Source: Geotalea uraniireducens Rf4 (lineage in GTDB: Bacteria; Desulfobacterota; Desulfuromonadia; Geobacterales; Geobacteraceae). Taken from it: 32,000 nucleotides of DNA. The stretch covers positions 2,910,001-2,942,000 of the forward strand of contig NC_009483.1 in the NCBI RefSeq assembly GCF_000016745.1, given 5' to 3'. The position numbers were made by a program, and so were the translations under genes. The notes below the pieces were generated by a model. The model ran no database searches, was not told the origin of the DNA, and saw nothing but the letters and a program-made list of their open reading frames with translations. Positions 1-17,233 of the stretch are shown in pieces; the first letter of the stretch is position 1, and the number at the start of each line of letters is the position of its first letter.

Positions 1-753
1 GTTTATGAGCCCCTCAAAGCTTATTTGAGACAGAGCGTTCATCACCGGTTGAAAATCAATGTCTCCGTCGCCGAAGAACAGATGTTCGTGCACGTCTCCT
101 TTTATGTCCTCTATATGGATGGTCTTGATCCTGTCTCTATAGGTGAGTATGGCTTCCTCGATACTTCGCGTTTCCGAGCATCGGACGTGGCCGATATCAA
201 GGGCGAGATGCAGGCGATCTTTCAACAACGGCTCTTCGCACAGCCTGTCGTATTCCGTCAGGTCGTCGATGTACATACCCGGCTCCGGCTCCAAAGCGAT
301 ATTCATCCCCTGCTTGTCCGCATATTCAGCCACATCTGCCAGCCCCTGTACCAGGATGGGCCACGCCAACTCCGCGTCCACCTGGGGGCTGAGCCTGCCG
401 GAACAGATGGTGATCGCCTCCGCCTGAAGGGTCTTTCCGAGATCGATTGCTTTTTTGGTGAAGGTGATTCTTTCTTCACGCCCCTCGTTGCTGACGAAAC
501 CCGGCTCATGCTTGCGCCAGCGGTCGAGGAAGTAGCGCGCCCCGGTTTCTACGACGACCTTCAGGCCGCGTTGCTCCAATATTCTCGATAGAGAGGCGAT
601 CTCCTCATCGGTGGTCTTCAGGATGTTGCAGTGATTATGGTCGACCGTAATGGCAATGCCGTCGTAGCCCAGTTCGGCAAGTATCTCGATGGCGTCCTCG
701 ATGCTGTGGTGTGCAAAGCCATTGGTGTTGTAACCGAACCTGAGTCTCTTCAA
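1..753 (-). CDS. Sugar phosphate isomerase/epimerase, xylose-isomerase-like TIM barrel (IolE/IolI-like fold), paralogue 1; the C-terminal end runs off the window
   Basis: Absent from the ORF track because it is open at the window edge. Hand translation of the minus strand in the frame ending at nt 1 gives 251 codons with no stop: (TTG)KRLRFGYNTNGFAHHSIEDAIEILAELGYDGIAI...LALDIGHVRC...IHIEDIKGDVHEHLFFGDGDIDF. It is collinear with the 2122..2985 product (YNSNGF, LDIGH, HFEDIK..VHNHLLPGDGDIDF). The TTG start at 751-753 overlaps the TGA of the upstream ligase (GCTTGAAG). Confidence 0.8.
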   Translation of the reverse strand, partial: MKRLRFGYNTNGFAHHSIEDAIEILAELGYDGIAITVDHNHCNILKTTDEEIASLSRILEQRGLKVVVETGARYFLDRWRKHEPGFVSNEGREERITFTKKAIDLGKTLQAEAITICSGRLSPQVDAELAWPILVQGLADVAEYADKQGMNIALEPEPGMYIDDLTEYDRLCEEPLLKDRLHLALDIGHVRCSETRSIEEAILTYRDRIKTIHIEDIKGDVHEHLFFGDGDIDFQPVMNALSQISFEGLIN

Positions 754-2168
754 GCCAATACTCCTTCACTTTCCTGTAGCTTATTCAAAAACATTTTCCT
801 GAGCTGGGGAATATCGATCTTGTTCAACTTTGCTTTCGGCAATGTTTCACAGTAGACGATATGTTTCGGGGTCTTGTAGTCCGGCAGGCGCGACTTGCAG
901 AATTTTCTCACTTCGCTGGGAGGAAATTCGCCTCTTGTCACCAGAAACGCGGCTAACGCCCCACCGGAGACCTCATCGTTCACGCCTATGACTACCGATT
1001 CTTCAATACGAGGGTGGTCCGAGAGAATTGCGTTGATTTCTTCCGGAGCCACCTTCTTCCCCGCGACGTTAACGATATTGCCGTAACGTCCATAAATAAA
1101 CAGTCTGTTGTCCTGGTCGAGCGAGCCAATGTCACCGGTGAAGAACCAGGTCGGATGCCTGTGCAACCCCATCACATTGCCATCCGGATCCAGATAGCCA
1201 AGGCTTATGGCAGGGGTCTTTACCAGGATGCGCCCCTCCTCTATCTTGACCTCCACGTTGTCCAGTACCGTCCCCACGCACTGAGGGGGGAGCTCTTCTC
1301 CCTCTCTTTCCACAGCCAGAAGGGAGGTTTCGCTGGTGGCGTACATCTCGCGCACCCATATGCCGTATTTCGCCAGCAGGAGCTCTTTTTCGCTTCGGGT
1401 CAGCCGGGATGAACCGGAATACCATCTGGTTCCCTGGTCGATGACCACATTCCTCACCACCGGCATTCTGCTAACGACCTGGTACATAAAAGCCGGTGCC
1501 TTGACCAACGAAGGTTTATGTTTGGTGACCAGCCCCAGAAAGGTCTTCGGCAGGAACTTTTTGATAAGCAGATTCTTGGCTCCTGTATCCAGGGCTGCCA
1601 TTACCGGCATAATGCCTGCCGAGTGATATATCGGCGCAGCGGTGAAGACACAGTCGCTCCCTGTGGTCCCGTATGCGGCATTGGAAAGTCTCGCCGCCTG
1701 CAAGATACTCTCTATGGAGTGGACAATCCCTTTCGGTTTCCCGGTCGTACCGGAAGTCAAAAGGAAAAGTGCAGGCGAACCGTAGTCTATTTCGATGTCA
1801 TAGTCTTGCGTCGGCGTCTTGCAGTCGGCTTTTTCCAGCGAGTCTTCCACTGCTATGTACGTAATGTCGAAGGTCTGCGACAGGTTTCCCTTTTCTCTTT
1901 GCAGCGTGGCGGGATCCAGGGGGAGTACCCCCATACCTAAACGTACAGCTCCGAAGAGTGTGGCTAGAAACTCGAAGGGATCCGCAATAGCAACTCCAAT
2001 GATGGCGCCTTTTTGCAGCTTTTCACGTTGCCATTTCCCACTCCACGCCATGGACCGCTCGATGAGTTGGCGGTAGCTATACTCCCGGTCCTCGTAAACG
2101 AGGGCAGGGCTGTCTGCTGCCTCAAACTGCAACGAAGCTTGCAGTATATGCTTCAGGGCACTTGTCAT
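750..2168 (-). CDS. AMP-dependent synthetase/ligase (adenylate-forming enzyme, acyl-AMP/acyl-ACP ligase-like)
   Basis: 472 aa. Adenylation motifs are present: LTSGTTGKPKGIVHS, MYATSETS (YGxTE-like), FFTGDIGSLD, GKKVAPEEIN and a C-terminal lysine region. The N-terminus ...SPALVYEDREYSYRQL is typical of the family. ATG 2168 lies 47 nt inside the upstream gene. An ACP gene lies two genes upstream. Confidence 0.9.
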   Translation of the reverse strand: MTSALKHILQASLQFEAADSPALVYEDREYSYRQLIERSMAWSGKWQREKLQKGAIIGVAIADPFEFLATLFGAVRLGMGVLPLDPATLQREKGNLSQTFDITYIAVEDSLEKADCKTPTQDYDIEIDYGSPALFLLTSGTTGKPKGIVHSIESILQAARLSNAAYGTTGSDCVFTAAPIYHSAGIMPVMAALDTGAKNLLIKKFLPKTFLGLVTKHKPSLVKAPAFMYQVVSRMPVVRNVVIDQGTRWYSGSSRLTRSEKELLLAKYGIWVREMYATSETSLLAVEREGEELPPQCVGTVLDNVEVKIEEGRILVKTPAISLGYLDPDGNVMGLHRHPTWFFTGDIGSLDQDNRLFIYGRYGNIVNVAGKKVAPEEINAILSDHPRIEESVVIGVNDEVSGGALAAFLVTRGEFPPSEVRKFCKSRLPDYKTPKHIVYCETLPKAKLNKIDIPQLRKMFLNKLQESEGVLA

Positions 2169-2985
2169 AGTTGATTCTCTTGAAGTAATTGAGACTGTGC
2201 AAAGCGGCTTCTGCCGGCTTCACATCATAGGTATAAAGCTCCACAGAGCAGTATCCCTCGTAGGAATTGCCAGAGAGTAGCTTCACGATCTTCCCAAAGT
2301 CAATATCTCCGTCCCCCGGCAACAAGTGGTTGTGAACCCGGTCTTTGATATCTTCGAAGTGCATGTGCTTGACCGATGCTCCCAACGAATTTATCGCCTC
2401 GCAGATATCCTCATTGGTGCACTGCGCGTGTCCGATATCCAAGGTAGCCCAGAGGGAGCCTTGGTATAATGGGAGCAGTTTAGCCAGATGTTCCACCCGC
2501 TCGACCAACATGCCCATCTCATTTTCTATGAGCAGATTGACGGTGCCGTCGCTTTTGGCCAGGATGGTATCAATCGATTCCCTAAGGCGGCGGTATCCCT
2601 CTTCTTCGCTGCATTGCTCCGGAAGAATCCCCGAGGTGATGGTCACGTTCTTGGCGCCGATGGCGGTGGCCGCTGCGATTGTGCTCAGTATGAGGTCGAT
2701 CCTTTTCTGTCGGTCGTTTTTGCTGTCGCTAATCAGCGAAGGCTCGAAATCGATGTCGCTCATCAGGTCCTTCGCCCCGGTGTGGAGATTGACGACGCTA
2801 ATGCCGGTGGCTTTCAACTTGTCCGTCAAACTATGCAGGTACTTGTCGGAATGATAGAGCGGGTCCAGATGATTGCGGTGGCAGGAGATCTCGATCGCCT
2901 GATAGCCTACCTCATGCAGGTCATCCAGAGTTAGTTCCATATCGAACCGCCTGAATCCATTCGAGTTGTAGCAGAGCTTGAACAC
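2122..2985 (-). CDS. Sugar phosphate isomerase/epimerase, xylose-isomerase-like TIM barrel, paralogue 2
   Basis: 287 aa: MFKLCYNSNGF...LIENEMG...LDIGHAQC...HFEDIKDRVHNHLLPGDGDIDF. The pattern of metal-ligand-like E/D/H/E residues fits the AP-endonuclease-2/xylose isomerase-like fold. The GTG start at 2983-2985 shares one nt with the ACP TAG stop. Confidence 0.8.
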   Translation of the reverse strand: MFKLCYNSNGFRRFDMELTLDDLHEVGYQAIEISCHRNHLDPLYHSDKYLHSLTDKLKATGISVVNLHTGAKDLMSDIDFEPSLISDSKNDRQKRIDLILSTIAAATAIGAKNVTITSGILPEQCSEEEGYRRLRESIDTILAKSDGTVNLLIENEMGMLVERVEHLAKLLPLYQGSLWATLDIGHAQCTNEDICEAINSLGASVKHMHFEDIKDRVHNHLLPGDGDIDFGKIVKLLSGNSYEGYCSVELYTYDVKPAEAALHSLNYFKRINYDKCPEAYTASFVAV

Positions 2986-3233
2986 TACGCGGCACCTCCG
3001 GTTTGAGTCGTGATAAAGCTATGGATGGTATTGACACTCTCCAGGACCTTGTAGATCTGGTCATCGGATATGGTGACGTCGTACTTTTCTTCCAGCGATG
3101 ACGCCAATTCCAAGGCGTTGATCGAATCAAGGCCTATCTCCTCGTTCAAAGACACGGCGTCTGGGATTTCTGCCGGAGTTATGGAAAGTTTCAGCGAACT
3201 GACTATCAACTCTTTGATCTCTTCTCTACTCAT
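2985..3233 (-). CDS. Acyl carrier protein
   Basis: 82 aa from the internal ATG at 3231-3233, which overlaps the TGA of the upstream KS-beta gene (ATGA). MSREEIKELIV...EEIGLDSINALELASSLEEKYDV carries the D-S-(L/I) phosphopantetheine attachment motif. The 128-aa form in the ORF track is an N-terminal over-extension into the KS-beta gene. Confidence 0.88.
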   Translation of the reverse strand: MSREEIKELIVSSLKLSITPAEIPDAVSLNEEIGLDSINALELASSLEEKYDVTISDDQIYKVLESVNTIHSFITTQTGGAA

Positions 3234-4459
3234 ACAAAGACCTCCTTGGTTGTTAATAACACAGAGGAATAATTCCCCATCGGGCTGAAATTGTTGATGA
3301 TTGCCGACTTCATGCGATGCTCGGAAATGACAGTTGGCGGCGCTTCTGCATCCACCTTTTGGCCTGGCCATTCAAGAAGAGGTGCTCCTCTGTTCTTGAA
3401 ACCACATAGTGCCGATACCAGTTGGAATAAGCCAGCCGCGCCAAACGTTTCCCCCAAAGCACGTTTAAGAGCCGTCACTGGCAAGCTCTTTTGACCCAGT
3501 AACCTTCGCAGGGCGTTTCTCTCCAATCCATCCATGACCCTGTCGCCATTGGCATTGGCAGAGATGTATCCCAGCAATACGTCGTCCACAACTGGCACTC
3601 TGTCCAGGCAGTCCATTATTGTCTCAGCCATCATTCTTACACGTTTAATTGAAGAGCTTGATGATGATCGTATCGATATCTCTTCTATGAAGCCGAGGAT
3701 ATCAGCCCCCCTGTTCAGGGCAGAATCCGCATCCTCCAGAAGGACTGCAGCGGCCCCTTCACCAAGGCAAAGCCCTTGTTTTTGCGGAAGATTACTGCTA
3801 CTACTCTGGCCACTGCCGTCGACGGCGATTTCTTCCAAAAGGCCCATCCCCCACAAGGATTCGATGACAAAGGGCGATAATTCCTCTGCTCCAACGACGA
3901 GCATGGCGCGCGCCTTTCCGGTCACGATCGCGAGGCTCGCCTGAAACAAGGCATCTACCGAGGAGGACGCAAAGCTTGAGACAATGGTGTTGTAACCCTT
4001 CAAGCCTAATTCCAGGCAGATGGTCCCGACCGATTCGTTGGGAACGCACCTGCTGGCTTTTAACGGTGAGACGCGCCCAGTTGGACGGGACAAGGCGCTG
4101 CAAACGCTTTCTCTGAACACGGTCCCGGAGAGTGCCGTTCCTACCAGCGCACCGACGTCCTTTAATCCATGGCAAGCCATCCCGCTCATGTCCAAGGCTT
4201 CTTTGCCAGCCAAGGCCGCCATCTTACTCAGCTTGGTCGCGTAACGACTGGTGTTCGGGTCCAGCCCTTCGGAAAACTCCTGCTCGTCTGCTAGAGATAC
4301 CCGGACCCGGACGTTACTTCCTTGAGCGGGAGCCATGAGTGCGAAATGACCCTGGCCCTGTTCCACGTTCCTGGAAAAAACGTCGATCCCTTTCCCAAAA
4401 ACGGAGACCGAACCCATCCCAGTTATGGCGATCTTTTTATTCAATTCTGAAAAACGCAC
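3230..4459 (-). CDS. Beta-ketoacyl synthase-like protein lacking the catalytic triad (KS-beta / chain-length-factor-like partner)
   Basis: 409 aa with a thiolase/KS fold, collinear with the adjacent KS. The aligned catalytic positions are substituted: SSFASS versus SACTAS (Cys to Phe), ISANANGD versus CAHGTGT (His to Asn), and LGETFGAAG versus IGHTNGAAA (His to Glu). Confidence 0.8.
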   Translation of the reverse strand: MRFSELNKKIAITGMGSVSVFGKGIDVFSRNVEQGQGHFALMAPAQGSNVRVRVSLADEQEFSEGLDPNTSRYATKLSKMAALAGKEALDMSGMACHGLKDVGALVGTALSGTVFRESVCSALSRPTGRVSPLKASRCVPNESVGTICLELGLKGYNTIVSSFASSSVDALFQASLAIVTGKARAMLVVGAEELSPFVIESLWGMGLLEEIAVDGSGQSSSSNLPQKQGLCLGEGAAAVLLEDADSALNRGADILGFIEEISIRSSSSSSIKRVRMMAETIMDCLDRVPVVDDVLLGYISANANGDRVMDGLERNALRRLLGQKSLPVTALKRALGETFGAAGLFQLVSALCGFKNRGAPLLEWPGQKVDAEAPPTVISEHRMKSAIINNFSPMGNYSSVLLTTKEVFV

Positions 4460-4463
4460 TCGT

Positions 4464-5687
4464 CTACTCCGATGTCTTGGTTATGAGGACCGAACTACAT
4501 TGTCCTCCGAAGGCATAAGCGTTTGAGAGGCAGACCGATACTTCAGTTTTCCTGGCCTTGTTCGAGACATAGTCGAGATCGCAGGACTCATCCCTTACCT
4601 CAAGATGTATGGTCGGAGGCACCACACCAGCCTCTATGCTCAGCACGCAGGTCGCCGCGGAGATGGCTGCGGCTGCGCCATTGGTGTGCCCAATGCAGGA
4701 TTTAATGGAACTGACCGGGATCTGGTAAGCCTGATTGCCGAACAGTCGCTTAATGGCAGCTGTTTCTGCCACATCGTTAAGCTTTGTCCCCGTCCCGTGT
4801 GCGCAGATGTAATCGACATCATGGATGTGTTTTCCTCCCGACTCCAGAGCAATTCTCATCGCTTCCGCGGCAGAATGTCCTGACGGATCGGGAGCCGTAA
4901 TGTCATAGGCATCATTGGTCAAGCCGTAGCCAGTCAAAAACGCCTTTGCTCTCTTCTTTCGCTGTTTCAGGTGTACTTGTGCTTCCAGCACCAAGGCTGC
5001 GGCCCCCTCTGAAAGGGCCAATCCGCTTCTATTGTTGTCGAAGGGCCTGCACCCTTTCTTCTCCAATGCGCGGTAGGAATCGAAGCAGGCATACTCAAAA
5101 GGGGTTAGGATGTCTACTCCAACCACGATGGCCATGTCGCACAACCCGCAGGCGATCAGGTCATAGGCGTAGCCGATTGCGGCATTGCTGGCGGTGCACG
5201 CCGATATGTTGGTCAAAGCTCCATTGCTGATGCTGTATTTCCGCACCAGCGAGTCGGTCAGGGCATGGTGCGGATAAGCCAGCAATCGGCCGTAGTCGGC
5301 TTTGGTGAGCTCGGCCCTCCCCTGATGTTCCTTAACCGCGAGCAGATGCGATACTCCACCGACGGCAGAGGCTACCACCAGTACGCAGTTCTGCTTTCTC
5401 AGTTGCTCGACGGAAAGTCCGGCTTCCAGCAGCGCTTCATCCATGACCTGGGTTGCCAGGGCGAGGGGCAGCTCCTCCTTGCAGGGGGTCTCTCGTCCCG
5501 GAACCCAGCTGACCTCCCCGCCGCAATGGGTGGAAAAGCGCGACGTGTCAAAGGACGCGATTGGGCTGATACCATCGGTTCCATTGACGAGATTGGCGAA
5601 AAACTCCTCCTTACCCGTTCCGATGGGCGAGGAAACCCCTACTCCTGAGATAGCTACTTTCTTAAGGAGTTTCATGACTTGCCTCAT
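4464..5687 (-). CDS. Beta-ketoacyl-ACP synthase II-like (FabF-type KS-alpha) with an intact Cys-His-His triad
   Basis: 407 aa with NISACTASNAAIG (active-site Cys), CAHGTGTKLND, SSIKSCIGHTNGAAAA and a C-terminal NAYAFGGQCSSVLI. An alternative start is ATG 5675 (MKLLKKVAISGVG), preceded by GAGG 6 nt upstream. Only 4 nt separate it from the downstream KS-beta gene. Confidence 0.9.
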   Translation of the reverse strand: MRQVMKLLKKVAISGVGVSSPIGTGKEEFFANLVNGTDGISPIASFDTSRFSTHCGGEVSWVPGRETPCKEELPLALATQVMDEALLEAGLSVEQLRKQNCVLVVASAVGGVSHLLAVKEHQGRAELTKADYGRLLAYPHHALTDSLVRKYSISNGALTNISACTASNAAIGYAYDLIACGLCDMAIVVGVDILTPFEYACFDSYRALEKKGCRPFDNNRSGLALSEGAAALVLEAQVHLKQRKKRAKAFLTGYGLTNDAYDITAPDPSGHSAAEAMRIALESGGKHIHDVDYICAHGTGTKLNDVAETAAIKRLFGNQAYQIPVSSIKSCIGHTNGAAAAISAATCVLSIEAGVVPPTIHLEVRDESCDLDYVSNKARKTEVSVCLSNAYAFGGQCSSVLITKTSE

Positions 5688-6447
5688 GGATCATCTCTGC
5701 TAGCCCCTGATACTTCTGAAAAACCAAGTCATGGAAATAATCCCGGTCGCTCCAGGGAAACTGATCCAGCGTTCCCCTGGCAACGGAGAGTATCGCCGAC
5801 TGTATGATCTCTTTGGAGAGACCGGACTCCTTGAGCCGGTGACAGATCTTCCCGGCAGCCAGCATGATCTCTTCAGCCGCCACCAGGTTGACATTCCGGT
5901 ACAGGCTCTCGTCGCGGGTTAGGGTCACTTTCCCGATTTTGCCGAAGATGCTTGCCAGGTATCTGGCGTCCGCATCGCTTTGGGCATTCACAATGAAATG
6001 CCCGATGTCTTCTTTGAGTAAATTGTCTGCTTCTCCGATCACCTTCATGCTAGCTGGCCGGGCGTACAGAAAATGGGTTGACTGCAGGTCTTCCAGCATC
6101 ACCGCGGTGGAGAGGTTCACGAGCAGGATGGGCTTGACGAGCAAGCCATCGAGCATTTTCATGCAGGGAAGGACTTCGCCTTTGGGCAAGGCGATCAGTA
6201 CCGCTTTCGCTTCTGCCATATCCTGTGGGGCAGAGTACACTGCCACGTTAGGCGTTTGTTCCAGCTTTGCAGTCTTGCTGCGGTCGGCGTCATGGACGAC
6301 TATGCGGTAATAGGGGGACAGCTTATGCACCAAAAGATTCCCCAGCTTTCCTGCGCCCCAAATGGCTATAGTCTCGTCGGTAAATTCCATTTCTCTCATA
6401 TCCCCAGGTCTGCTCTGCAAGAGAGCGGTGCAGCGGTGTCGAGGCAC
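5662..6447 (-). CDS. NAD(P)-binding oxidoreductase, pyrroline-5-carboxylate-reductase (ProC)-like
   Basis: An N-terminal Rossmann motif (IAIWGAGKLGNLL) is followed by a helical C-terminal half. The start is uncertain. GTG 6447 lies 18 nt after the upstream stop and is preceded by AAGGGG. ATG 6399 and ATG 6390 would give a shorter, more typical N-terminus. Confidence 0.6.
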   Translation of the reverse strand: MPRHRCTALLQSRPGDMREMEFTDETIAIWGAGKLGNLLVHKLSPYYRIVVHDADRSKTAKLEQTPNVAVYSAPQDMAEAKAVLIALPKGEVLPCMKMLDGLLVKPILLVNLSTAVMLEDLQSTHFLYARPASMKVIGEADNLLKEDIGHFIVNAQSDADARYLASIFGKIGKVTLTRDESLYRNVNLVAAEEIMLAAGKICHRLKESGLSKEIIQSAILSVARGTLDQFPWSDRDYFHDLVFQKYQGLAEMIHEASHETP

Positions 6448-6465
6448 CGCCCCTTGCAGCTAATG

Positions 6466-7770
6466 CTAATTTTGGTTGTTTTGATCGTTTCCGAACAGCA
6501 CTGCCTCGTAACCTTCCAGATCGAGAAAGCCATGACCGCTAAAGCAGGCCACGATCACCCTTTCCTTACCTTCCTCTTTGGCCTCGTATGCCTCATGAAA
6601 GACCCCTTTGATGGCGTGGCAGGTTTCCGGGGCCGGAAGAATCCCCTCGACCTTGGTGAAAATCCTCCCACAAGCAAATACATCGGACTGTTCATAGGCA
6701 ACCGCTTCCAGGTATCCCAGGTGCCTTAGCAGACTGACCAAGGGCGAGCCCCCATGCTGACGCAATCCCCCAACGTGCATCCTGGGAGGTACAAAGTCGG
6801 TCCCCAGTGTGTAGGCCTTGTTGAGAGGAGTGAGCTTGCCCGGATCTCCATGCTCATAGCGGTAAGTACCCTGGGTCAGACGGGGTGCCGCCGTCGATTC
6901 CACGGCCAGGAAGCGCAGTTTGTTCTGCAGTCGATCCTTAAGGAAGGGCATCATAAAGCCTCCCAGGTTGCTACCGCCGCCTACGCAGGCAATCAGTACG
7001 TCAGGCTTTTCGCCAGCCAGTTTCAGCTGTACCTCGGTTTCCAGGCCAATCACCGTATTGTGCAGCAGAGTGTGCATGGCGTTGCTGCCATTCAGATAAC
7101 AGATGCCTTCATTCTCCATGGCGAATTCCAAGGCATCGCTGATCCCGGAATTCACCGAGCCCGGGTGGTCCGGCATCTTTTCCAACAGCGCCCGGCCTGA
7201 CTTGGTATGACGGCTCGGTGATGGCAGGAATTCTGCGCCGAAGATCTGCGAGTGGATTCTCCGGTAAGGCTTCTGGTTGAATGACACTTCCGGCATAAAT
7301 ACCGTGCAGGAAAGGCCGTATTGAGCGCAGGCCAGCGCCACGGAAGTGCCCCACTGACCGGCTCCGGTCTGAGTGACCACCCCCTTGTATCCCTCTTTTT
7401 TCACATAGTAGGCTTGTGCCAGACTGGTGTTCGGCTTAAAACTCCCCGTGCAGAGAAGATCTTCCCGTTTGAAGTATATTCGCGCGGGAGTGTCCAGGTA
7501 TCTTTCCAGGTTGCGGGCGCGGTAAAGGGGTGTCGGCCTACCGATTACCAGGTATTTCTCCAAGATCTCTTCAGGGATGTCGAGCCAGCGCTCTTCCATG
7601 ACATCCTGTTCCTGGAGGGTTTTGGGAGTGATTTCCCTGATCTTCTGAATCCTCGAATCTGTTCCCTCAGGGTCTCTGGGAGGCGGCAGCTCTTCCGGCA
7701 AATCTTTCCGGCTGTTATACCACCTCCTCGGGACATCCTTTGCGTCTAAGCGTATGTGAGGACTATACAT
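6466..7770 (-). CDS. TrpB-like PLP-dependent enzyme (TrpB2 / trpB_rel type), paralogue 1
   Basis: FKREDLLCTGSFKPNTSLAQAYYVKKEGYKGVVTQTGAGQWGTSVALACAQYGL, VSFNQKPYRR, GGGSNLGG. The start is set at ATG 7770 (MYSPHIRLDAKDVPRRWYN) by alignment with paralogue 2 (MYMQEIRIDLPIEELPTKWYN). This start overlaps the upstream TAG by 8 nt. The ORF-track start at 7806 is probably an over-extension. Confidence 0.85.
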   Translation of the reverse strand: MYSPHIRLDAKDVPRRWYNSRKDLPEELPPPRDPEGTDSRIQKIREITPKTLQEQDVMEERWLDIPEEILEKYLVIGRPTPLYRARNLERYLDTPARIYFKREDLLCTGSFKPNTSLAQAYYVKKEGYKGVVTQTGAGQWGTSVALACAQYGLSCTVFMPEVSFNQKPYRRIHSQIFGAEFLPSPSRHTKSGRALLEKMPDHPGSVNSGISDALEFAMENEGICYLNGSNAMHTLLHNTVIGLETEVQLKLAGEKPDVLIACVGGGSNLGGFMMPFLKDRLQNKLRFLAVESTAAPRLTQGTYRYEHGDPGKLTPLNKAYTLGTDFVPPRMHVGGLRQHGGSPLVSLLRHLGYLEAVAYEQSDVFACGRIFTKVEGILPAPETCHAIKGVFHEAYEAKEEGKERVIVACFSGHGFLDLEGYEAVLFGNDQNNQN

Positions 7771-8971
7771 ATGCCGACCCCTGCTGGAGGTACTGTTGCG
7801 ATACATGATCAGTAAGCGTGCCCCACTGGACGAAGAAATCGTGGTTGGTAAAGTTGTAGGGCGACTTGAAATAGCATGCCAACTGAGTGAGAACCCCTTT
7901 CTCCCCCTTCTGATAGAAGAAGTCGGTCAGGCGGATCAGGTCAAGGATCAACGGGGCTGCAAGAATGGAATCCTTGCCCACCCAGTTGATCTTCATCGAC
8001 ATTTCCTCGCCGAGCCAGCCGCAGAAATCGATGTTATCCCAAGCCTCCTTGGCATCGCCTCTGGGCTTGTAGTAGTTGATCTTCACCTGGTGGTCGAAGT
8101 TGTCATAGCCCATGATCTCAGACAAGACGCCAGTCTTGGTCTCGATTTTGGTTTTCAGGTTTTCCGGGGAGTTGAGGACTTCGCCGTCCTTGTTGCCAAG
8201 GATGTTCACACTGTACCAGCCGGTCAACTTGAGTGACCGGGCCTTCAGCATCGGTGCAATGACCGTTTTGTAGAGGGTCTGCCCGGTCTTCCCATCCTTG
8301 CCGGCGACCACCACCCCTTTTTGATTCATGAGGTCCATGAGGGCGGGGATATCGACCGTGACAGACGGGGTGAAATTGACATACGGGGATTTGGTCATGA
8401 TGGCTGCATAGGCGTAGAGCATCCCAAAGGTGATCCGGCTACTGTCTTGATCAAGCCCACTTTCGAAGTTCTCGATGCTCTGATACTCCGGAACTCCCTG
8501 CACCTGGATAAATTTATCGGTGGAAGAGAGGTTGACCACGATGACATGGTCGAGGCCATGACGGCTCTTGAACTTCTCGATATCGTTGATCAACGCGGTG
8601 GTAATTGCCCTTCGGCTCGGCGCCTCGATGGCGTTCTCCCTGAAGCTGTCGATGATGCCGCCGTCGTTTGTTGCCGCCCCGGCCAAGACGACCACCTCTT
8701 GAAGCTTATTTTTTGTCGCCTCCAGGATTTTCTCTTTCACCACCTTGTGTTCCAATGCAGCGGTATAGAGGTCCTTTTTCACGATATCCCAGCCACCAAA
8801 GACGATGTCCTCAATTGGAACCAGGTTCAAGGCTTTGAGGGTCTGGTCGTTATCTGTGGTCAGATAACTTTCTTCCATAAGTCCCAGCTTCTTGGCAAAG
8901 GCTCCGGCGATGACCGTTGTTGAGATACTACCCAGTGCCCCAACGAATAATGCTCCGATTTTCTTTTTCAT
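7763..8971 (-). CDS. Inositol-3-phosphate (myo-inositol-1-phosphate) synthase family enzyme
   Basis: 402 aa, with an N-terminal Rossmann segment ALFVGALGSISTT. It closely resembles remembered archaeal/bacterial MIPS sequences: MLYAYAA...PYVNFTPS...IPAL...AGKDGKTGQTL.KT..APM, GWYSVNILGNKDGEVL, SILAAPLILDLIRL, YFKSP. Confidence 0.82.
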   Translation of the reverse strand: MKKKIGALFVGALGSISTTVIAGAFAKKLGLMEESYLTTDNDQTLKALNLVPIEDIVFGGWDIVKKDLYTAALEHKVVKEKILEATKNKLQEVVVLAGAATNDGGIIDSFRENAIEAPSRRAITTALINDIEKFKSRHGLDHVIVVNLSSTDKFIQVQGVPEYQSIENFESGLDQDSSRITFGMLYAYAAIMTKSPYVNFTPSVTVDIPALMDLMNQKGVVVAGKDGKTGQTLYKTVIAPMLKARSLKLTGWYSVNILGNKDGEVLNSPENLKTKIETKTGVLSEIMGYDNFDHQVKINYYKPRGDAKEAWDNIDFCGWLGEEMSMKINWVGKDSILAAPLILDLIRLTDFFYQKGEKGVLTQLACYFKSPYNFTNHDFFVQWGTLTDHVSQQYLQQGSAYV

Positions 8972-8999
8972 TTTCTGCTCCTTTAGTGTTTGATTAGTT

Positions 9000-10025
9000 T
9001 TATTTAACTTTCAAGATGGTCTTACACCCGCGGGTTACCACTGATTCGTCCTGACTATAAATCTGTGGGAATTCTCCAAGTTCGATCACGTTGGTGATCA
9101 ATCTCACTATTTCGCTACCTTTGCTGTCCAGAAGTTCGATCGCTTCCCTGAATTTCCCCGTTCCTCCGATGTTTCCGAAAATGTTAACCATTTTGCTGAC
9201 GAACAGGTCGGTGGAGAAGGAGACTTTCGGTTGCGAGAAGAAAAGGACGCTTCCACCCGGCTTTACCGTGTGGTTTATGACTTCTCCGACGTCAGAGAAG
9301 CCGCTGGTCTCCACGACCAGGTCAAATGAGCCTCTGCCGACGTGTGCCGGCATCAGTTTCATATCCATGGCAACGACCTGGTCCGCACCCAGTTCTCTGG
9401 CAATCTGCAGTCTTGTCTCATTGATATCCACGATCATCACCTTGGCATTGGGTTTACTCTTGATGATCATTGTGGCGAGGATGCCCAAGGTACCTGCTCC
9501 GAGAATGAGCACATCATGCGGATCCATATGAGCCGTGGCTTTATCGATCCCTTTCATCACAACCGCCGCAGGTTCAATGAGACAGGCGCTTTCGTCTGAT
9601 ATCTCACAGTCTTTCAGGGAATGCAGGGAGGACTGATTGACAATGACATAGTCAGCAGCAAACCCGTTTGCTGAGATGCCGTGCTTCTTGACAGAGGTGC
9701 AGAGGTCCTCGTTGATCTCTCTGCAGAACTGACACTGGCCGCAGTATATTGAGCATTCTCCGGTGACCCGCTCGCCCACGGAGAACTTCTGCACCCCTGC
9801 GCCTTTAGCGATAATTTCTCCCACCCATTCGTGGCCCGGCACCAGAGGATATACATGAGGTCCTTCATACCGGCCGGAGAACAGTTTCACATCACTGCCG
9901 CAGATACCAACATACCTGACACTTACCAGAACCTCGTGCTCTCTCAGAGTACGCAACTTCACAGGAGAGATAGTCAAGAGACCGGGGCTTTCGATCTTCA
10001 ATGCTCTGCCACCCGAAGTTAACAT
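9000..10025 (-). CDS. Zinc-dependent alcohol/polyol dehydrogenase (MDR superfamily, sorbitol/threonine-dehydrogenase-like)
   Basis: 341 aa with GICGSDVKL...PGHEWVGEI (catalytic Zn ligands), CGQCQFCREINEDLC (structural Zn Cys cluster) and ILGAGTLGILA (GxGxxG). The start overlaps the stop of the upstream TrpB-like gene by 7 nt. Confidence 0.88.
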   Translation of the reverse strand: MLTSGGRALKIESPGLLTISPVKLRTLREHEVLVSVRYVGICGSDVKLFSGRYEGPHVYPLVPGHEWVGEIIAKGAGVQKFSVGERVTGECSIYCGQCQFCREINEDLCTSVKKHGISANGFAADYVIVNQSSLHSLKDCEISDESACLIEPAAVVMKGIDKATAHMDPHDVLILGAGTLGILATMIIKSKPNAKVMIVDINETRLQIARELGADQVVAMDMKLMPAHVGRGSFDLVVETSGFSDVGEVINHTVKPGGSVLFFSQPKVSFSTDLFVSKMVNIFGNIGGTGKFREAIELLDSKGSEIVRLITNVIELGEFPQIYSQDESVVTRGCKTILKVK

Positions 10026-11332
10026 TGGTGACCTTCCTTGAACAAAATTGCCTCGTATCCGGCCAAATCAAAGAAACCATTGCCGCTCAGACAGAAAACA
10101 ATGACCCTATCTTCTCCCTCTTCCTTCGCCTCCAGCGCCGAGTCTATGGCCGCCTTGATTGCGTGACAGGATTCGGGTGCCGGCAGTATCCCTTCGCACA
10201 AGCTGAACAGCCTCCCGGCCTGAAACGCCTCCTCCTGGGAAAGTGCTGTTGCATCAAGTAGCCCTTCTTTACGCAGCAGTCCCACCAATGGTGACCCGTT
10301 GTGCTGCCGCAAGCCTCCTACGTGTATCCTGGGAGGTACGAAGCCTTGGCCAAGTGTGTAGGACTTTGTCAAGGGGGTGAGCCCCGAGGCGTCCCCGGCC
10401 CCGTATTCGTAGACACCTTTGGTGAGACGTGGCACCGAGTCCGACTCCGCTGCCAGGAACTGAAGGCTGTCCGGGTCCTTAAATTTTTCCGGCAGGAAGG
10501 GGAGCATCAAACCACCGCAGTTGCTACCGCCACCGACGCAGGAAATTAGCGTGTCAGGTTTCAATCCGGCCATTGCCAGCTGCTTCTTGGTTTCCAGGCC
10601 GATAATGGTTTGGTGCATCAGGACATGGGGGAGGTTACTCCCGGATACGTAGGCGTATTTCCCCTGATGCGCGAGCGCTGTTTCTATTGCCTCGCTGATT
10701 CCGGTGCCGATGGATCCGGGATGCTGAGGGTCGCTAAGCAGAAATGACTTTCCCGACTGAGTGAGGTTGCTTGGAGAAGGGTGGACCTCACCACCGCACA
10801 GTTTCATAAAATAGCGACGATACGGTTTCTGTTCGTAAGAAACCCTTGCCATGAATATCTTTGCACCGAGACCATACGACTGCGCCGCTATGCAGACAGC
10901 AGTCCCCCACTGGCCGGCTCCCGTTTCCGATATAAGGGCTTCAAAACCATCCTGCTTCGCGTAGTAGGCCTGGGCGATAGCCGAGTTCAATTTGAAGCTA
11001 CCGGTCGGCAGCACGTCTTCCCGCTTGAAAAAGATCTTGGCCGGAGTACCCAGATGCCGCTCAAGGGAAACGGCGCGCTGCAGCGGGGTAGGCCTGCCGA
11101 TCCTCAGATAAGCTTCCAGGACTTCACCGGGGATCGTTTCCCAACGCTTAGCTGAGTTGTCCTGCTCGTTCAACGCAACCGGACGAATGCGCCGGTTATT
11201 TTCGATAGTAGGAGTACCGTCAGCGGGATCCTTCGGTTCAGGTAGAATGGCAGGGAGGTCTGGCAGTGCGTTGTACCATTTGGTAGGCAGCTCTTCTATT
11301 GGGAGATCTATCCTTATTTCTTGCATGTACAT
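10019..11332 (-). CDS. TrpB-like PLP-dependent enzyme (TrpB2 / trpB_rel type), paralogue 2
   Basis: 437 aa with FKREDVLPTGSFKLNSAIAQAYYAKQDGFEALISETGAGQWGTAVCIAAQSYGL, VSYEQKPYRR and GGGSNCGG. It is collinear with the 6466..7770 product along the whole length. Confidence 0.88.
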   Translation of the reverse strand: MYMQEIRIDLPIEELPTKWYNALPDLPAILPEPKDPADGTPTIENNRRIRPVALNEQDNSAKRWETIPGEVLEAYLRIGRPTPLQRAVSLERHLGTPAKIFFKREDVLPTGSFKLNSAIAQAYYAKQDGFEALISETGAGQWGTAVCIAAQSYGLGAKIFMARVSYEQKPYRRYFMKLCGGEVHPSPSNLTQSGKSFLLSDPQHPGSIGTGISEAIETALAHQGKYAYVSGSNLPHVLMHQTIIGLETKKQLAMAGLKPDTLISCVGGGSNCGGLMLPFLPEKFKDPDSLQFLAAESDSVPRLTKGVYEYGAGDASGLTPLTKSYTLGQGFVPPRIHVGGLRQHNGSPLVGLLRKEGLLDATALSQEEAFQAGRLFSLCEGILPAPESCHAIKAAIDSALEAKEEGEDRVIVFCLSGNGFFDLAGYEAILFKEGHQC

Positions 11333-11350
11333 CCTCCATTGCAGCTTCGT

Positions 11351-12208
11351 TTAATCCATCTCAGGTTTTGCTCTATTGTGCCCGGCCCACACCCTGTTGC
11401 TGATTTCAATCTTTTTCCTGACAGTCAGCCACGCTTTGGTGCTCAGGAATGAATCTTCAAAACGGTTCACCATCTCTTTGAACATCGCATAGGGGATGGT
11501 AAAGGAGAGCTCGTCGGTCTGGAAATATCTTCTGGGCCACGGGTCCCATCCCCCCAGAACGGCCTTATTCCGTCCCTTGGCTAAATAATGCAGTGGCCAG
11601 GTGACGAGGCTCCCGCAGGCGGCGCCCCAGGGAGAAACTACTACTTCGGGATCATCGGTCACAAAAGCCGCTAAGAGGTTAAGCCCGCAAAGTGCTTCCG
11701 GCCGCGCAAAAAACGCCACTAACTCCGGTTGTTCGTGTTTTTCGAAGAGTGTGAGGGGCTTGACCACACAGTATCTTCCATGGGCCTCTTTCGGGTCGAT
11801 ATGCTCAAATATTTGTCTAACTACATCAGGGGAATTGTACAGAAGCTCCCCCTCGCATTGGCCGGACAGCCCCGTTGAGAGATAACAAATGACTCTTTCC
11901 GCTTGAGGTTTGTTGTAGCCCAACCAGAAAGCGGCCCCCGGGCAGCCGTAATGTTCTGCAGAAGCCCAAACAACTATCTTTCTTTTCCTGGCCTTCCAGA
12001 CATTACACATGATGCAGGAAAATCCGTCATAGATAGCTTGCCAGTCGATTTCATCCCGCTCCTCCCTTTCACGGGTAGGGAGCTTCCCAACTTTTGGAGA
12101 AAGGCCTTCCCTTGGCTCGCTTTCCGTGTAAAAGATTCCAAGTGGTTCCTCTTCCAAACCAAGGGCTTCAAGGAGTCCAGTTGTCCTCTCAATTATTTTC
12201 GAGTCCAT
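11351..12208 (-). CDS. Hypothetical protein, possibly DUF169 family
   Basis: 285 aa with no signal peptide. The Cys-containing segment GFSCIMCNVWKARKRKIVVWASAEHYGCPGAAFWLGY resembles my recollection of DUF169 (COG2043) proteins. The assignment rests on memory only. It is tightly linked to its neighbours (gaps of 18 and 19 nt). Confidence 0.45.
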   Translation of the reverse strand: MDSKIIERTTGLLEALGLEEEPLGIFYTESEPREGLSPKVGKLPTREREERDEIDWQAIYDGFSCIMCNVWKARKRKIVVWASAEHYGCPGAAFWLGYNKPQAERVICYLSTGLSGQCEGELLYNSPDVVRQIFEHIDPKEAHGRYCVVKPLTLFEKHEQPELVAFFARPEALCGLNLLAAFVTDDPEVVVSPWGAACGSLVTWPLHYLAKGRNKAVLGGWDPWPRRYFQTDELSFTIPYAMFKEMVNRFEDSFLSTKAWLTVRKKIEISNRVWAGHNRAKPEMD

Positions 12209-12227
12209 TTCCCACTCTCAAAAAGGC

Positions 12228-12686
12228 TCAAACTTCAGTACCCGGCTCATTATTTTTTTGCAATGCGTCCATAAGACGCTCTTGAGCATTAATGATCAGC
12301 ATTACGTCTTCCTGTGTAATACTGTTTACCCACTCTTGATTCCAAGAGTAAAATTTGGCCATACATTTTGCCCAAATATTTTCACCTAATTCGGTAGTCT
12401 TTACTATTGTTACTCTCGTATCAGTTGCTGAGCGCGTGACTGTCACATAACCAAGTGACTGCAGTTTGCTAATAATCTTTGATATATTTGATTTTTCATA
12501 TAGCAGGCTTCCGACTAAGTTTTTTTGGCATGTCTCCCCAGCTCGTTGAATTTCATTCAGAACCACAAATTGTTGCTGATTAATTGAGAACTCTGAAACT
12601 ATTTTATCGCCTAATCTATGAAGACATGCCCCTATTATGAGGAAGTTCTTAACCAACACCGAAGAATATTTATTCATAGCCACCAT
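12228..12686 (-). CDS. MarR family transcriptional regulator
   Basis: 152 aa with a winged-HTH pattern: QQQFVVLNEIQRAGETCQKNLVGSLLYEKSNISKIISKLQSLGYVTVTRSATDTRVTIVKTTELG. The gene is visibly more AT-rich than the genes downstream of it. An alternative start is ATG 12677. Confidence 0.85.
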   Translation of the reverse strand: MVAMNKYSSVLVKNFLIIGACLHRLGDKIVSEFSINQQQFVVLNEIQRAGETCQKNLVGSLLYEKSNISKIISKLQSLGYVTVTRSATDTRVTIVKTTELGENIWAKCMAKFYSWNQEWVNSITQEDVMLIINAQERLMDALQKNNEPGTEV

Positions 12687-12778
12687 TTACATACAGATTT
12701 CGTGTCACGAGATACTGCCCCCCCTTTTTCTCACTGAATGTGGATAATAAAACTATCCCTTAACTACTAATTGACAAG

Positions 12779-12858
12779 TGTCAGGACATCGGTTACCCGG
12801 ATGTGTCAAGACATCGGTTACCCTTAACGCCCTTTTTTGTGTCAAGACATCGGTTACC
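12779..12858. repeat. Left-end repeat cluster of the IS: three direct copies of the ~20-bp terminal motif
   Basis: TGTCAGGACATCGGTTACCC at 12779-12798, TGTCAAGACATCGGTTACCC at 12804-12823 and TGTCAAGACATCGGTTACC at 12840-12858. Confidence 0.9.
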
Positions 12859-12919
12859 TTCATTAGAAATATCAGCTACAATGTTCTCTGTGATTTCAAC
12901 TTGAGGGGAGAACATCCGC

Positions 12920-13384
12920 ATGGAAGAAGAACTCAGGAAACAAGCAGTCCAGCGCCATCTTGCAGGCGAATCACCCAAGGCAGTCTATACAAGCCTTGAT
13001 CGCTCCAAGAAGTGGTTTTTTAAGTGGTTGAACCGGTATCAATCTGGCGCGACTGACTGGTACAAGGAACACTCAAGAGCGCCACTTAAAAGACCGTCTG
13101 AACTCAGCATCGTAGATAAGGAGATTATTGTCTCCACCAGAAACCGCCTGGACTCGTCACCATTTGCACAGATTGGCGTTTCCGCTATCAAGTGGGAGCT
13201 GCATAAGCTGGGGTTACCGTTTCGCTCTGACAGCACCATTAACCGGACCCTGAAGCGGGAAGGACTCGTTAAAAAAAACGAGATATTCCCCCAAAGGGGT
13301 CGAGTACCCGTACTTTACCGAAGCCCTGTGCTGCAACAACATCCATCAGATGGATCTTGTTGGCCCCCGCTACATCAAGAGTGA
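12920..13384 (+). CDS. Transposase, N-terminal HTH part (upstream frame of a split transposase gene)
   Basis: MEEELRKQAVQRHLAGESPKAVYTSLDRSKKWFFKWLNRYQ... has an HTH-like N-terminus. The downstream frame is already open from the A8 run (13271-13278), where it reads ...KKTRYSPKGVEYPYFTEALCCNNIHQMDLVGP. Removing one A would fuse the two parts. Confidence 0.75.
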   Translation: MEEELRKQAVQRHLAGESPKAVYTSLDRSKKWFFKWLNRYQSGATDWYKEHSRAPLKRPSELSIVDKEIIVSTRNRLDSSPFAQIGVSAIKWELHKLGLPFRSDSTINRTLKREGLVKKNEIFPQRGRVPVLYRSPVLQQHPSDGSCWPPLHQE

Positions 13385-14090
13385 CGGCAGATTTTACTCG
13401 ATGAATGTGATTGATCTGTACAGCCATCGGGTCTTCATCGAATCAAATCGCACCAAGGAGGATGACAACATTGCACAGGGTTTGCTGCGCTGCTGGAAGT
13501 CAATGGGGCTTCCCGACTTCCTGCAAATGGACAATGAACTCAGTTTCCGTGGCAGTAACCGCTATCCGAGGTCACTTGGTCTGGTGCTGCGACTATGTCT
13601 CTACTTCGGCGTTCATCCTGTTTTTATCCCTGTTGCGGAACCGTGGCGCGATGGCGTAATAGAGAGCTTCAACGATACCTATGACAAAAAGTTTTTTCGC
13701 CGCCAGTGGTTCACAAGCTATTCCATGCTCAAGCGGCAAAGCAAGAATTTCCAGCAGTTTCACAACAAGAATCACCGTTACAGCTATCTCAAGGGGAAAA
13801 CGCCACTGGAGGTTATTGAAGCTGACAAATTCAAGCCCTTGACGCTGGGGCCAAATACCAGGATGCCAAAACTTGATTTTCTCCCGGACGGCACCATTTC
13901 GCTCATTAGATTTATCAGGAGCGATAGAACACTTAACATCTTTGGCGAAAAATTTGAGGTTTCAAAAGACCTCGTCTATTCATATGTGCGAGCCATGATC
14001 GTAACGGAAATTCACACGCTGCAAGTGTACCTGGGTGAAGACTTTGTTCAAAGCTTTGAGTACAGAATGCCTACAGAGTTCAGCTCATGA
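13350..14090 (+). CDS. Transposase, DDE (integrase-core/rve) catalytic part (downstream frame)
   Basis: DDE-like signature: HQMDLVGP (D), FLQMDNELSF (D), PWRDGVIESFNDT (E). This frame is +1 relative to the upstream part. Confidence 0.8.
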   Translation: MDLVGPRYIKSDGRFYSMNVIDLYSHRVFIESNRTKEDDNIAQGLLRCWKSMGLPDFLQMDNELSFRGSNRYPRSLGLVLRLCLYFGVHPVFIPVAEPWRDGVIESFNDTYDKKFFRRQWFTSYSMLKRQSKNFQQFHNKNHRYSYLKGKTPLEVIEADKFKPLTLGPNTRMPKLDFLPDGTISLIRFIRSDRTLNIFGEKFEVSKDLVYSYVRAMIVTEIHTLQVYLGEDFVQSFEYRMPTEFSS

Positions 14091-14114
14091 AATAGTATGC
14101 ATAATCAGGGGGTC

Positions 14115-14172
14115 GGGTAACCGATGTCCTGACACTTTTTAGAGTTAGGCTTGGGTAACCGATGTCCTGACA
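14115..14172. repeat. Right-end repeat cluster of the IS: two copies of the terminal motif in inverted orientation
   Basis: GGGTAACCGATGTCCTGACA at 14115-14134 and at 14153-14172. Confidence 0.9.
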
Positions 14173-14374
14173 TTTGACAACTAATCGAGTTTTCCCCAAA
14201 CCACCTGCTATGCAGGTCTATGATTTGCGAGTAAATCAATGTCGAATGGAGTTTTACAATAAAATAGTTTCCATGTCAACCATTTTATTATGCCTCTTCT
14301 AATTTGTATTTCCTTAATCCGCGAGAACCATGGAAGAAAAGGTAGCTGGCAGGCTCAAAATCTTTCAAAGCCCA

Positions 14375-17211: not shown

Positions 17212-17233
17212 GCATCCCTTTCCTGAATCAGTG

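Follow-up and report, generated by a model that had tools for sequence, protein, structure and literature searches.

In the ebo pathway, which leads to thallusin, an aromatic quinoline core is built from a cyclitol and L-aspartate by way of 6,7,8-trihydroxyquinaldic acid (bioRxiv 10.64898/2026.05.21.724671). The cyclitol is provided by EboD, an enzyme resembling 3-dehydroquinate synthase (DHQS), or, in Actinomycetota, by a myo-inositol-1-phosphate synthase (MIPS) together with two isomerases/dehydratases (bioRxiv 10.64898/2026.05.21.724671). What, then, would a bacterium make when a MIPS-type cyclase is encoded in one row with two enzymes resembling the tryptophan synthase β-subunit (TrpB) and a pair of ketosynthases? 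Such a row is found in Geotalea uraniireducens Rf4, at one end of the stretch of 32,000 nucleotides analysed here (NC_009483.1, positions 2,910,001 to 2,942,000, hereafter “the window”). Full-text searches of the literature found no characterised pathway with this combination of genes, in agreement with a sequence-only reading made earlier from the letters of the DNA; the cluster is an orphan for which the literature holds no matching description that we could find. From the genes and their recurrence elsewhere, it probably makes and exports a specialised hybrid of a cyclitol-derived amino acid and a polyketide, a product whose structure we infer, and not a lipid.

Extent and recurrence of the cluster

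Inside the window, the cluster appears as an unbroken row of 13 minus-strand open reading frames (ORFs), tightly packed from position 12686 down to nucleotide 1, and on this the ORF listing bears out the sequence-only reading. That reading was also right that the row runs past the left edge: contig L001, retrieved by an exact-protein look-up and 100% identical to window positions 1-12168, carries the missing part of the last gene of the row, which encodes a TIM barrel, and seven further genes. Its “13-gene operon” stands as a conserved operon-like row but not in its size, since the whole unit covers about 19 kb and has 20 genes (marR and about 19 others), eight of which lie partly or wholly past the edge. 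The unit consists of marR, about 18 genes for enzymes or transporters and one for a small secreted protein, and these form a single whole that is operon-like and conserved.

The cluster recurs gene for gene, and in nearly the same order, in a Nitrospirota metagenome-assembled genome (MAG; contigs L003/L009/L016/L018), with best-match protein identities of 27-75%. The genes there are marR, TrpB-like A, a Zn-dependent alcohol dehydrogenase (Zn-ADH), MIPS, TrpB-like B, a ProC-like reductase, a β-ketoacyl synthase (ketosynthase, KS), a dead KS partner, an acyl carrier protein (ACP), a first xylose-isomerase-fold TIM barrel (TIM1) and an adenylate-forming ligase, together with genes for a CMD-like protein, a second TIM barrel (TIM2), a flavoprotein, UbiD, a DUF362 protein with a ferredoxin (Fer4) tail, a muconolactone-isomerase-like protein and an MFS transporter, while the DUF169 gene lies on the other strand. 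Because this near-identical order recurs, the arrangement in Geotalea is not due to chance. A variant occurs in a Desulfobacter MAG (L011/L015), which has 14 families in common with it, among them both TrpB-like enzymes, Zn-ADH, the ProC-like reductase, ACP, TIM1, ligase, CMD-like protein, KS, dead KS, DUF362-Fer4 protein, isomerase-like protein and two copies of DUF169. This variant is without MIPS, TIM2, flavoprotein and UbiD, has a MATE exporter in place of the MFS transporter, and carries instead an AroB-like DHQ synthase together with a carboxylic acid reductase and with an aminotransferase resembling glutamate-1-semialdehyde (GSA) aminomutase.

Two conclusions follow from these clusters. 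We regard the cyclitol part, the ACP/KS part and the TrpB-like part as functionally linked, since all are found together in three phyla-level lineages; the possibility that the genes are unrelated neighbours sharing no pathway is the less likely one, and the co-localisation of homologues elsewhere, which the sequence-only reading had made a test of its proposal, is borne out by the Nitrospirota and Desulfobacter clusters. MIPS, for its part, gives way in the variants to a DHQ synthase of the AroB-like kind, and the conserved feature is therefore a carbocycle and not inositol, which the same reading had named in its example of a product.

Parts of the cluster are also met in smaller cassettes. 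One contig (L012, GC 59%) carries a TIM2-type barrel, TrpB-like A, a TIM1-type barrel and TrpB-like B, followed by a B12-radical-SAM enzyme and a UbiA prenyltransferase; another (L014, GC 71%) has a TrpB-like gene, TIM1, TrpB-like B, a ProC-like reductase, an aminotransferase and an MFS transporter; and a third (L097, GC 38%) has TIM1, a TrpB-like gene of type A, a Zn-ADH, a methyltransferase, a ProC-like reductase and an AroB-like cyclase. A TIM barrel and a TrpB-like enzyme are thus present in all three cassettes, the ProC-like reductase in the last two, and Zn-ADH with the AroB-like cyclase in the last. The core that recurs, in at least six lineages if the cassettes holding parts of it are counted, consists of a cyclase, a Zn-dehydrogenase, a TIM barrel, a TrpB-like enzyme and a ProC-like reductase. 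As a whole, the cluster is extremely uncommon: with the CMD-like protein as probe it was detected in two of 185,579 species genomes, a count that excludes the Rf4 chromosome, which was not returned, presumably because this region is masked in the collection. In the low-GC contig, the cassette (484-3411) lies directly downstream of a quorum-sensing locus resembling agrC/agrB/agrD/agrA, a location which suggests density-dependent control of a related pathway there.

Enzymes of the cluster and their active sites

Families were assigned with Pfam and NCBIfam profiles, and relatives of known structure were sought by sequence comparison with the PDB. Together with residue alignments and a profile search, these comparisons confirmed every family call of the sequence-only reading, including the dead KS, the ProC-like reductase and DUF169. 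All cluster genes of the window lie on the minus strand.

The two TrpB-like enzymes use pyridoxal phosphate (PLP). Paralogue A (10019..11332) scores 597 bits with the NCBIfam TrpB-like equivalog, retains both catalytic residues, Lys and Glu, in the motifs GSFKLN and ETGAGQWG, and matches the crystallised Sulfolobus TrpB2 6HUL with 429 bits and ~55% identity. Paralogue B (6466..7806, probable start 7770; NCBIfam TrpB-like, 606 bits) keeps the Lys and has Gln in place of the catalytic Glu (GSFKPN, QTGAGQWG). In both, Phe replaces the His that precedes the PLP Lys. Out of the nearest 123 TrpB2-like sequences, five show the exchange of Glu for Gln, each of them a B-type enzyme linked to a cluster. 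The paralogues form separate orthogroups in the Nitrospirota comparison, and both are well conserved, at 68% (Nitrospirota) and 61% (Desulfobacter) identity for A and 74% and 70% for B. In TrpB, the catalytic Glu promotes attack by indole; Gln at this position therefore argues for another nucleophile, and the residue pattern points to a paralogue B acting on something other than indole. No trp gene was found in the window or in the related loci, and a role in supplying tryptophan for a tryptophan-derived product was considered and rejected. A further TrpB-like relative (P0134, 57% identity; L013) does not lie in a comparable cassette.

The FabF-like β-ketoacyl-ACP synthase (4464..5687) has an intact Cys/His/His triad, seen as the Cys of ACTAS and the His of AHGTGT and GHTNG in Geotalea, Nitrospirota and Desulfobacter alike. 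In its partner (3230..4459) all three residues are lost in all three lineages: the Cys is replaced by Ala, Ala or Gly, the first His by Asn and the second by Glu, Glu or Ser, the Geotalea protein thus having Ala, Asn and Glu. Because Ala, Ala and Gly, and not Gln, replace the active-site Cys, this partner does not resemble a chain-length factor (CLF); judged by these residues, it is a conserved inactive subunit. The KS scores 317 bits with the FabF model and 211 bits (210.7; cutoff 325) with the AmcF model, both below cutoff, and its best PDB match is chain B of 9S5H, from a heterodimeric KS pair; the partner reaches 22 bits with the AmcG model, for which the cutoff is 80. A word-indexed search of 5.8 billion protein clusters returned only two close relatives of the dead KS, at 97% and 38% identity, and two weaker ones (P0123 and P0124, 27-28%) belong to unrelated KS-pair loci. 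The protein has been deposited at two lengths, 368 residues in GenBank (ABQ26704.1) and 409 in RefSeq (WP_041245442.1), a discrepancy in the start site.

The KS pair is accompanied by a discrete ACP (2985..3233; PP-binding, E 4e-10), in which the GLDS motif is visible, and by an adenylate-forming ligase, presumably its loader (750..2168; AMP-binding and AMP-binding_C). The best NCBIfam matches of the ligase, all below cutoff, are fatty-acid and o-succinylbenzoate CoA ligases, and its orthologues share 45% (Nitrospirota) and 36% (Desulfobacter) identity with it. The genes of the three clusters show no ketoreductase (KR) and no cyclase domain of the TcmN/SnoaL type or of any other known kind; the sole candidate is the muconolactone-isomerase-like protein described below, a small alpha+beta barrel.

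On the cyclitol side, the MIPS-family cyclase (7763..8971; ABQ26708.1/WP_011939394.1) matches both of its Pfam domains (PF07994, 188 bits; PF01658, 116 bits), retains the catalytic blocks GKDGKTG, NILGN-DG and DSILAAPL, and aligns over its full length with solved MIPS structures, namely 7NWR (274 bits) and the A. fulgidus enzyme 1U1I (216 bits). A relative with 50% identity (P0004) lies in an unrelated sugar-modification locus. The Zn-dependent polyol/ketocyclitol dehydrogenase of the medium-chain dehydrogenase/reductase (MDR) type (9000..10025; ADH_N and ADH_zinc_N) shows the GHE motif and the Cys-rich structural Zn motif and has orthologues in all variants, the low-GC cassette included; its top NCBIfam match, scyllo-inosose 3-dehydrogenase IolM, is below cutoff (173 vs 450). 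Of the two barrels, TIM1 (2122..2985; PF01261, E 1e-33), a putative ketocyclitol dehydratase or isomerase, has weak IolO, IolE and epimerase matches, keeps motifs of the metal-ligand type in five orthologues, and adjoins a TrpB-like gene in each of the three small cassettes. TIM2 (1..753; PF01261) has 251 of its 281 residues, the N-terminal ones, in the window and is complete in L001; it co-varies with MIPS, being present in the Nitrospirota cluster and not in that of Desulfobacter. Against the IolE and IolO models the barrels score 53-65 bits where the cutoff is 290, and among solved structures the only good match is an uncharacterised M. jannaschii protein, IolE being a weak one.

The ProC-like NAD(P)-dependent reductase (5662..6447) belongs to a small unnamed family. 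A profile made from four orthologues has as its best match the pyrroline-5-carboxylate (P5C) reductase 5BSE (E 8e-10). Among 1.84 billion clusters, only 118 representative ones reach E<=1e-3, and three reach E<=1e-30. Homologues are encoded in the L014 and L097 cassettes. As the N-terminus is not conserved in an alignment of the relatives (A1), a start at 6390 is the more probable one.

Past the left edge, L001 encodes the presumed tailoring enzymes. The sequence of an FMN_red flavoprotein (L001 12258-12950) shows a CxxCxxCx5C motif at the N-terminus, of the kind typical of the iron-sulfur flavoproteins of anaerobes. It adjoins a UbiD-family (de)carboxylase (L001 12959-14368), which passes the family cutoff of TIGR00148 (259.9 bits vs 244.85); its best specific match is the hydroxyarylic-acid decarboxylase VdcC, at 222.6 bits below the cutoff of 650. 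The cluster has no gene for a flavin prenyltransferase of the UbiX type. Further on are a DUF362 protein with a C-terminal two-[4Fe-4S] ferredoxin tail, to which its PDB matches are limited, a muconolactone-isomerase-like protein of 97 residues, an MFS transporter with weak similarity to aromatic-acid symporters, and a putative small secreted protein of 159 residues whose N-terminus resembles a signal peptide. No protein of the cluster is as highly conserved as the CMD/AhpD-like one (116 residues; L001 15577-15927, with counterparts at L009 13769-14122 and L011 20558-20890), with 66-75% identity across the three distant lineages and, in alignment A2, 66-69% to the Geotalea protein. It has a single conserved Cys (GSKIGCAKISD), not the CxxC of AhpD, and a specific catalytic role is therefore suggested.

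At the other end, the row is headed, as in the Nitrospirota cluster, by a MarR-family regulator (12228..12686; Pfam MarR/MarR_2/SarA-Rot), which ends 19 nt upstream of the gene for the DUF169 protein (11351..12208; PF02596, E 1e-39). DUF169 is encoded on the opposite strand at the 3′ end of the Nitrospirota cluster and twice in that of Desulfobacter, and has no relative among PDB sequences. AlphaFold2 models from single sequences were too poor for a fold search, with a mean predicted confidence (pLDDT) of 34 for DUF169 and 49 for the ProC-like reductase.

The junctions between these genes, read directly from the sequence, include ATGA at 3230-3233 (dead KS/ACP), TAGTG at 2985 (ACP/TIM1) and TTGA at 750-753 (ligase/TIM2), as well as overlaps of 47 nt (TIM1/ligase), 14 nt (ProC-like/KS) and 8 nt (MIPS/TrpB-like B); the remaining gaps measure 4-28 nt (4 and 17-28 nt). 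All of these had been listed by the sequence-only reading and stand, whereas two other details depend on the choice of start codons: the 7-nt overlap requires the longest-ORF ATG of Zn-ADH, and the gap between TrpB-like B and the ProC-like gene widens to 75 nt if the latter uses the start conserved in its relatives. This gap (window 6391-6465) is the largest inside the operon, measuring 201 nt in Nitrospirota (L009 7835-8035) and 152 nt in Desulfobacter (L011 11288-11439), and may be the site of an internal promoter or of some regulatory element. Shine-Dalgarno-like GGAG or AGGAG sequences precede most starts. No Rfam RNA was found, terminator-like sites in 1-14500 show no excess (21 vs 15.6 expected from shuffled sequence), and a consensus promoter scan was uninformative, performing no better than on shuffled sequence.

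About 85 nt upstream of marR, between it and a divergent MFS gene, sits an insertion sequence (12768..14183, plus strand) with HTH_23 and rve ORFs, 31-nt terminal inverted repeats and, close to each end, internal repeats of a 21-nt motif in several copies. This 1.4-kb stretch is missing from a metagenomic relative that is 96.6% identical (L010). The element lies outside the pathway, but may influence how the operon is expressed in Rf4. Beyond it, window positions 14475-32000 hold apparently unrelated genes, for an MFS transporter, a transglutaminase-like protein, a double rhodanese, a LysR regulator, an HD protein, a response-regulator/PAS/SpoIIE phosphatase, a P-type cation ATPase and DsbC; at 28875-31097 there is an ABC exporter that NCBI names “peptidase domain-containing.”

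Proposed pathway and its rivals

How might these enzymes work together? In the scheme that we consider probable, each step of which is drawn from homology and co-occurrence, MIPS would cyclise glucose-6-phosphate to a cyclitol phosphate, which the Zn-dehydrogenase and the two TIM barrels would turn, by oxidation and by dehydration or isomerisation, into a reactive ketocyclitol, enol or polyphenol. The TrpB-like enzymes would form an aminoacrylate from serine or O-phosphoserine and attach it to the ring. If a ring carbonyl neighbours the alanyl side chain so formed, the amine could close onto it, giving a bicyclic imine like pyrroline-5-carboxylate that the ProC-like enzyme would reduce; we propose that this reductase always accompanies the cassette because ring closure yields its imine substrate. 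The carboxylic acid would then be adenylated and placed on the ACP, where the heterodimer of KS and dead KS would add one malonyl unit or a few. Tailoring that needs no O2 would follow, by UbiD (with the iron-sulfur flavoprotein) and by the DUF362-ferredoxin, CMD-like and muconolactone-isomerase-like proteins, and the product would leave through the MFS pump under the control of MarR. The hydroxyls of the ring would in this way stem from the sugar and not from oxygenases, which fits strict anaerobes.

Several points weigh against this scheme. The cluster encodes no inositol-phosphate phosphatase, and the nucleophile assigned to the TrpB-like enzymes is deduced from gene co-occurrence alone. 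UbiD may either carboxylate a phenol or decarboxylate an aromatic, heteroaromatic or unsaturated acid, and no role can be assigned to the DUF169, DUF362, CMD-like and isomerase-like proteins. The L012 and L014 cassettes show no cyclase in the available part of their contigs, so the ring donor there might not be a dedicated cyclitol. Finally, the ligase, being nearest (below threshold) to fatty-acid ligases, could load an ordinary acyl chain in place of the amino acid.

The most serious competitor, which we nevertheless think unlikely, dispenses with closure onto nitrogen: the cyclitol would be fully dehydrated to a tri- or tetrahydroxybenzene, a TrpB-like enzyme would alkylate a ring carbon to give an amino acid like DOPA or TOPA, UbiD would carboxylate the phenol or act later as a decarboxylase, and the resulting hydroxy-aromatic acid would be the starter for ligase, ACP and KS. 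The TIM barrel family PF01261 includes, besides IolE, the 3-dehydroshikimate dehydratases that aromatise carbocycles, and VdcC, the nearest specific relative of UbiD, acts on hydroxyarylic acids; MIPS, TIM2, flavoprotein and UbiD are moreover exchanged as a set in Desulfobacter for an AroB-like cyclase, whose product would already be carboxylated. Engineered TrpB “tyrosine synthases” are among the PDB matches (8EGY), and such enzymes depend on mutation of the catalytic Glu, the very residue that is Gln in paralogue B. This route, however, leaves no role for the ProC-like reductase, one of the most faithfully co-occurring genes, and full aromatisation remains putative; the carboxylic acid reductase and aminotransferase of Desulfobacter also indicate that the sets of modules need not converge on one intermediate. 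We judge it much less probable still that the product is an envelope lipid, along the lines of the inositol amino-lipid which the sequence-only reading had given as an example; an acylated or alkylated inositol would bear a serine-derived head group, and housekeeping fatty-acid synthesis would supply the reductive steps in trans. The long-chain fatty-acid CoA ligases to which the ligase is nearest, below threshold, and the top score of the KS with FabF would suit such a product, as would the fact that MIPS feeds inositol lipids in other bacteria. Yet no acyltransferase, glycosyltransferase, CDP-alcohol transferase, KR, dehydratase (DH) or enoyl reductase (ER) is found in the three complete clusters, so that the earlier failure to see KR, DH, ER or acyltransferase genes holds for the full gene sets. 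MIPS can be replaced by an AroB-like cyclase, the exporters (MFS and MATE) are of the drug or metabolite type, and the genes revealed downstream speak for another chemistry: UbiD, the CMD-like and the muconolactone-isomerase-like proteins point to aromatics or lactones, and the iron-sulfur flavoprotein, the DUF362-ferredoxin and the MFS transporter likewise sit badly with a lipid. Occurrence in so few genomes would also be atypical for a structural lipid.

Could the genes serve breakdown instead? A MarR-regulated operon for the catabolism of an aromatic or cyclitol substrate, with the MFS protein as importer and with UbiD, the CoA-type ligase, the dehydrogenase and the CMD-like, muconolactone-isomerase-like and IolE-like proteins as degrading enzymes, is suggested by family names that overlap those of anaerobic aromatic and β-ketoadipate catabolism and of the iol genes, and by the resemblance, weak as it is, of the MFS protein to aromatic-acid symporters. 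We hold this to be very improbable, as both kinds of cyclase (MIPS and the AroB-like one), the ACP with the KS/dead-KS pair, and the carboxylic acid reductase belong to anabolism, no catabolic equivalog model reaches its cutoff, neither IolG, IolD, IolB, IolC nor any ring-reducing enzyme is present, and the Desulfobacter variant has a MATE exporter.

If the hybrid pathway that we favour is real, it represents a new gene-cluster family of strict anaerobes (Geotalea, Nitrospirota, Desulfobacter and the low-GC contig beside the agr locus), in which oxygen-rich rings are made without oxygenases by reusing the hydroxyls of a sugar through a cyclitol. It would also give the TrpB2-like subfamily a natural function, as the counterpart of laboratory-evolved TrpB enzymes that alkylate nucleophiles other than indole. 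A bolder proposal, to which we give little credence for now, is that this O2-independent route ends in a polyhydroxylated, redox-active, metal-chelating N-heterocycle (a hydroxy-indole- or indoline-2-carboxylate, or a quinoline-like compound), the TrpB2 with Gln forming the C-C or C-N bond to the carbocycle, and that the product is, or contributes to, the electron shuttle or Fe(III) solubiliser of Rf4. Unlike the contact-dependent Geobacter species, G. uraniireducens reduces Fe(III) oxide at a distance by means of a soluble mediator (PMC4923279), and secretion of riboflavin has been reported for it (PMC6277576). It is speculative to connect the cluster with extracellular electron transfer or with the chelation of metals. 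Rf4 is a cultured and fully sequenced subsurface bacterium that reduces iron and uranium, and these ideas are directly testable in it.

Comparison with known systems

The analogies drawn by the sequence-only reading were with rhizobial acpXL and aryl-polyene clusters, which do share a discrete ACP and two KS-family genes with the present one, and in the aryl-polyene case an adenylating enzyme as well. These analogies fail on the defining genes. The rhizobial cluster is defined by acpXL in company with fabZXL, fabF1XL/fabF2XL, adhA2XL and lpxXL. Neither the FabZ-type dehydratase nor the LpxXL acyltransferase of the acpXL very-long-chain fatty acid cluster occurs in the three complete clusters, and the same is true of the KR, DH, thioesterase and LolA/MMPL genes by which aryl-polyene clusters are defined. 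Likeness to the iol operon is confined to sub-threshold similarity to IolE, IolO and IolM, and its IolG, IolD, IolB and IolC have no equivalents here.

The carrier module resembles the single-extension systems of cispentacin (AmcB/F/G/H) and coronafacic acid (Cfa1-5) and the minimal type II polyketide synthases (PKSs), with which it shares an adenylating enzyme, a discrete ACP and a heterodimer in which only one KS is active. The differences are that scores with AmcF and AmcG stay below cutoff, and that no KR, dehydratase, aromatase or known cyclase is encoded here. The partner is full length and carries Ala where the chain-length factors of type II PKSs carry Gln, and the starter, 2-oxoglutarate or acetate in the known systems, would here be a cyclitol-derived amino acid. 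The TrpB-like enzymes, for their part, share with TrpB2 the PLP Lys and the GGGSN phosphate loop, to which paralogue A adds the catalytic Glu; they depart from it in the Phe before the Lys, in the Gln of paralogue B and in having no trpA or trp operon context, as they always lie beside a TIM barrel and usually beside a dehydrogenase, reductase or cyclase, not beside tryptophan genes.

It is the ebo system (eboABCDEF), with the thallusin and saccharoquinoline pathways, that the front end of the cluster resembles most in its logic. There, a sugar-phosphate cyclase and a TIM barrel of the xylose-isomerase fold yield a cyclitol that is joined to an amino acid to build a hydroxylated aromatic scaffold, a logic that the present cluster would share. 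In both, the cyclase is interchangeable, DHQS-like or MIPS with isomerases/dehydratases there, as between Desulfobacter and Geotalea/Nitrospirota here. The cyclitol supply takes the form of MIPS and TIM2 in Geotalea and Nitrospirota and of an AroB-like cyclase in Desulfobacter and L097, which is a resemblance in manner of working only. Distant TIM relatives (25-43% identity) are found in ebo-type loci, beside MIPS or DHQS-like cyclases, a TatD protein and a phosphodiesterase, and the nearest outside relatives of TIM2 adjoin MIPS in such loci. Many metagenomic loci (L019-L096; for example L055, 7951-14892) have this make-up: MIPS or a DHQS-like cyclase accompanies a TIM2-like barrel, and TatD and a phosphodiesterase of type I are encoded as well. 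They are ebo/thallusin-type clusters, including the MIPS arrangement reported for Actinomycetota.

The two systems part beyond the cyclitol. Only the TIM barrels and the cyclase are in common: EboB (TatD), EboC (a UbiA prenyltransferase) and EboF (the phosphodiesterase) are not in this cluster, and the AroB-like cyclase of Desulfobacter has 23-27% identity to the DHQS-like genes of ebo-type loci. The ebo pathway uses L-aspartate and does without TrpB-like enzymes, and a TrpB-like gene was present in none of the 78 TIM-containing loci outside the present cluster type. To its ebo-like parts, the Geotalea cluster adds a ligase, an ACP, a KS pair, a ProC-like reductase, UbiD and iron-sulfur proteins. 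It is not itself an ebo cluster, but its front end plausibly works like one.

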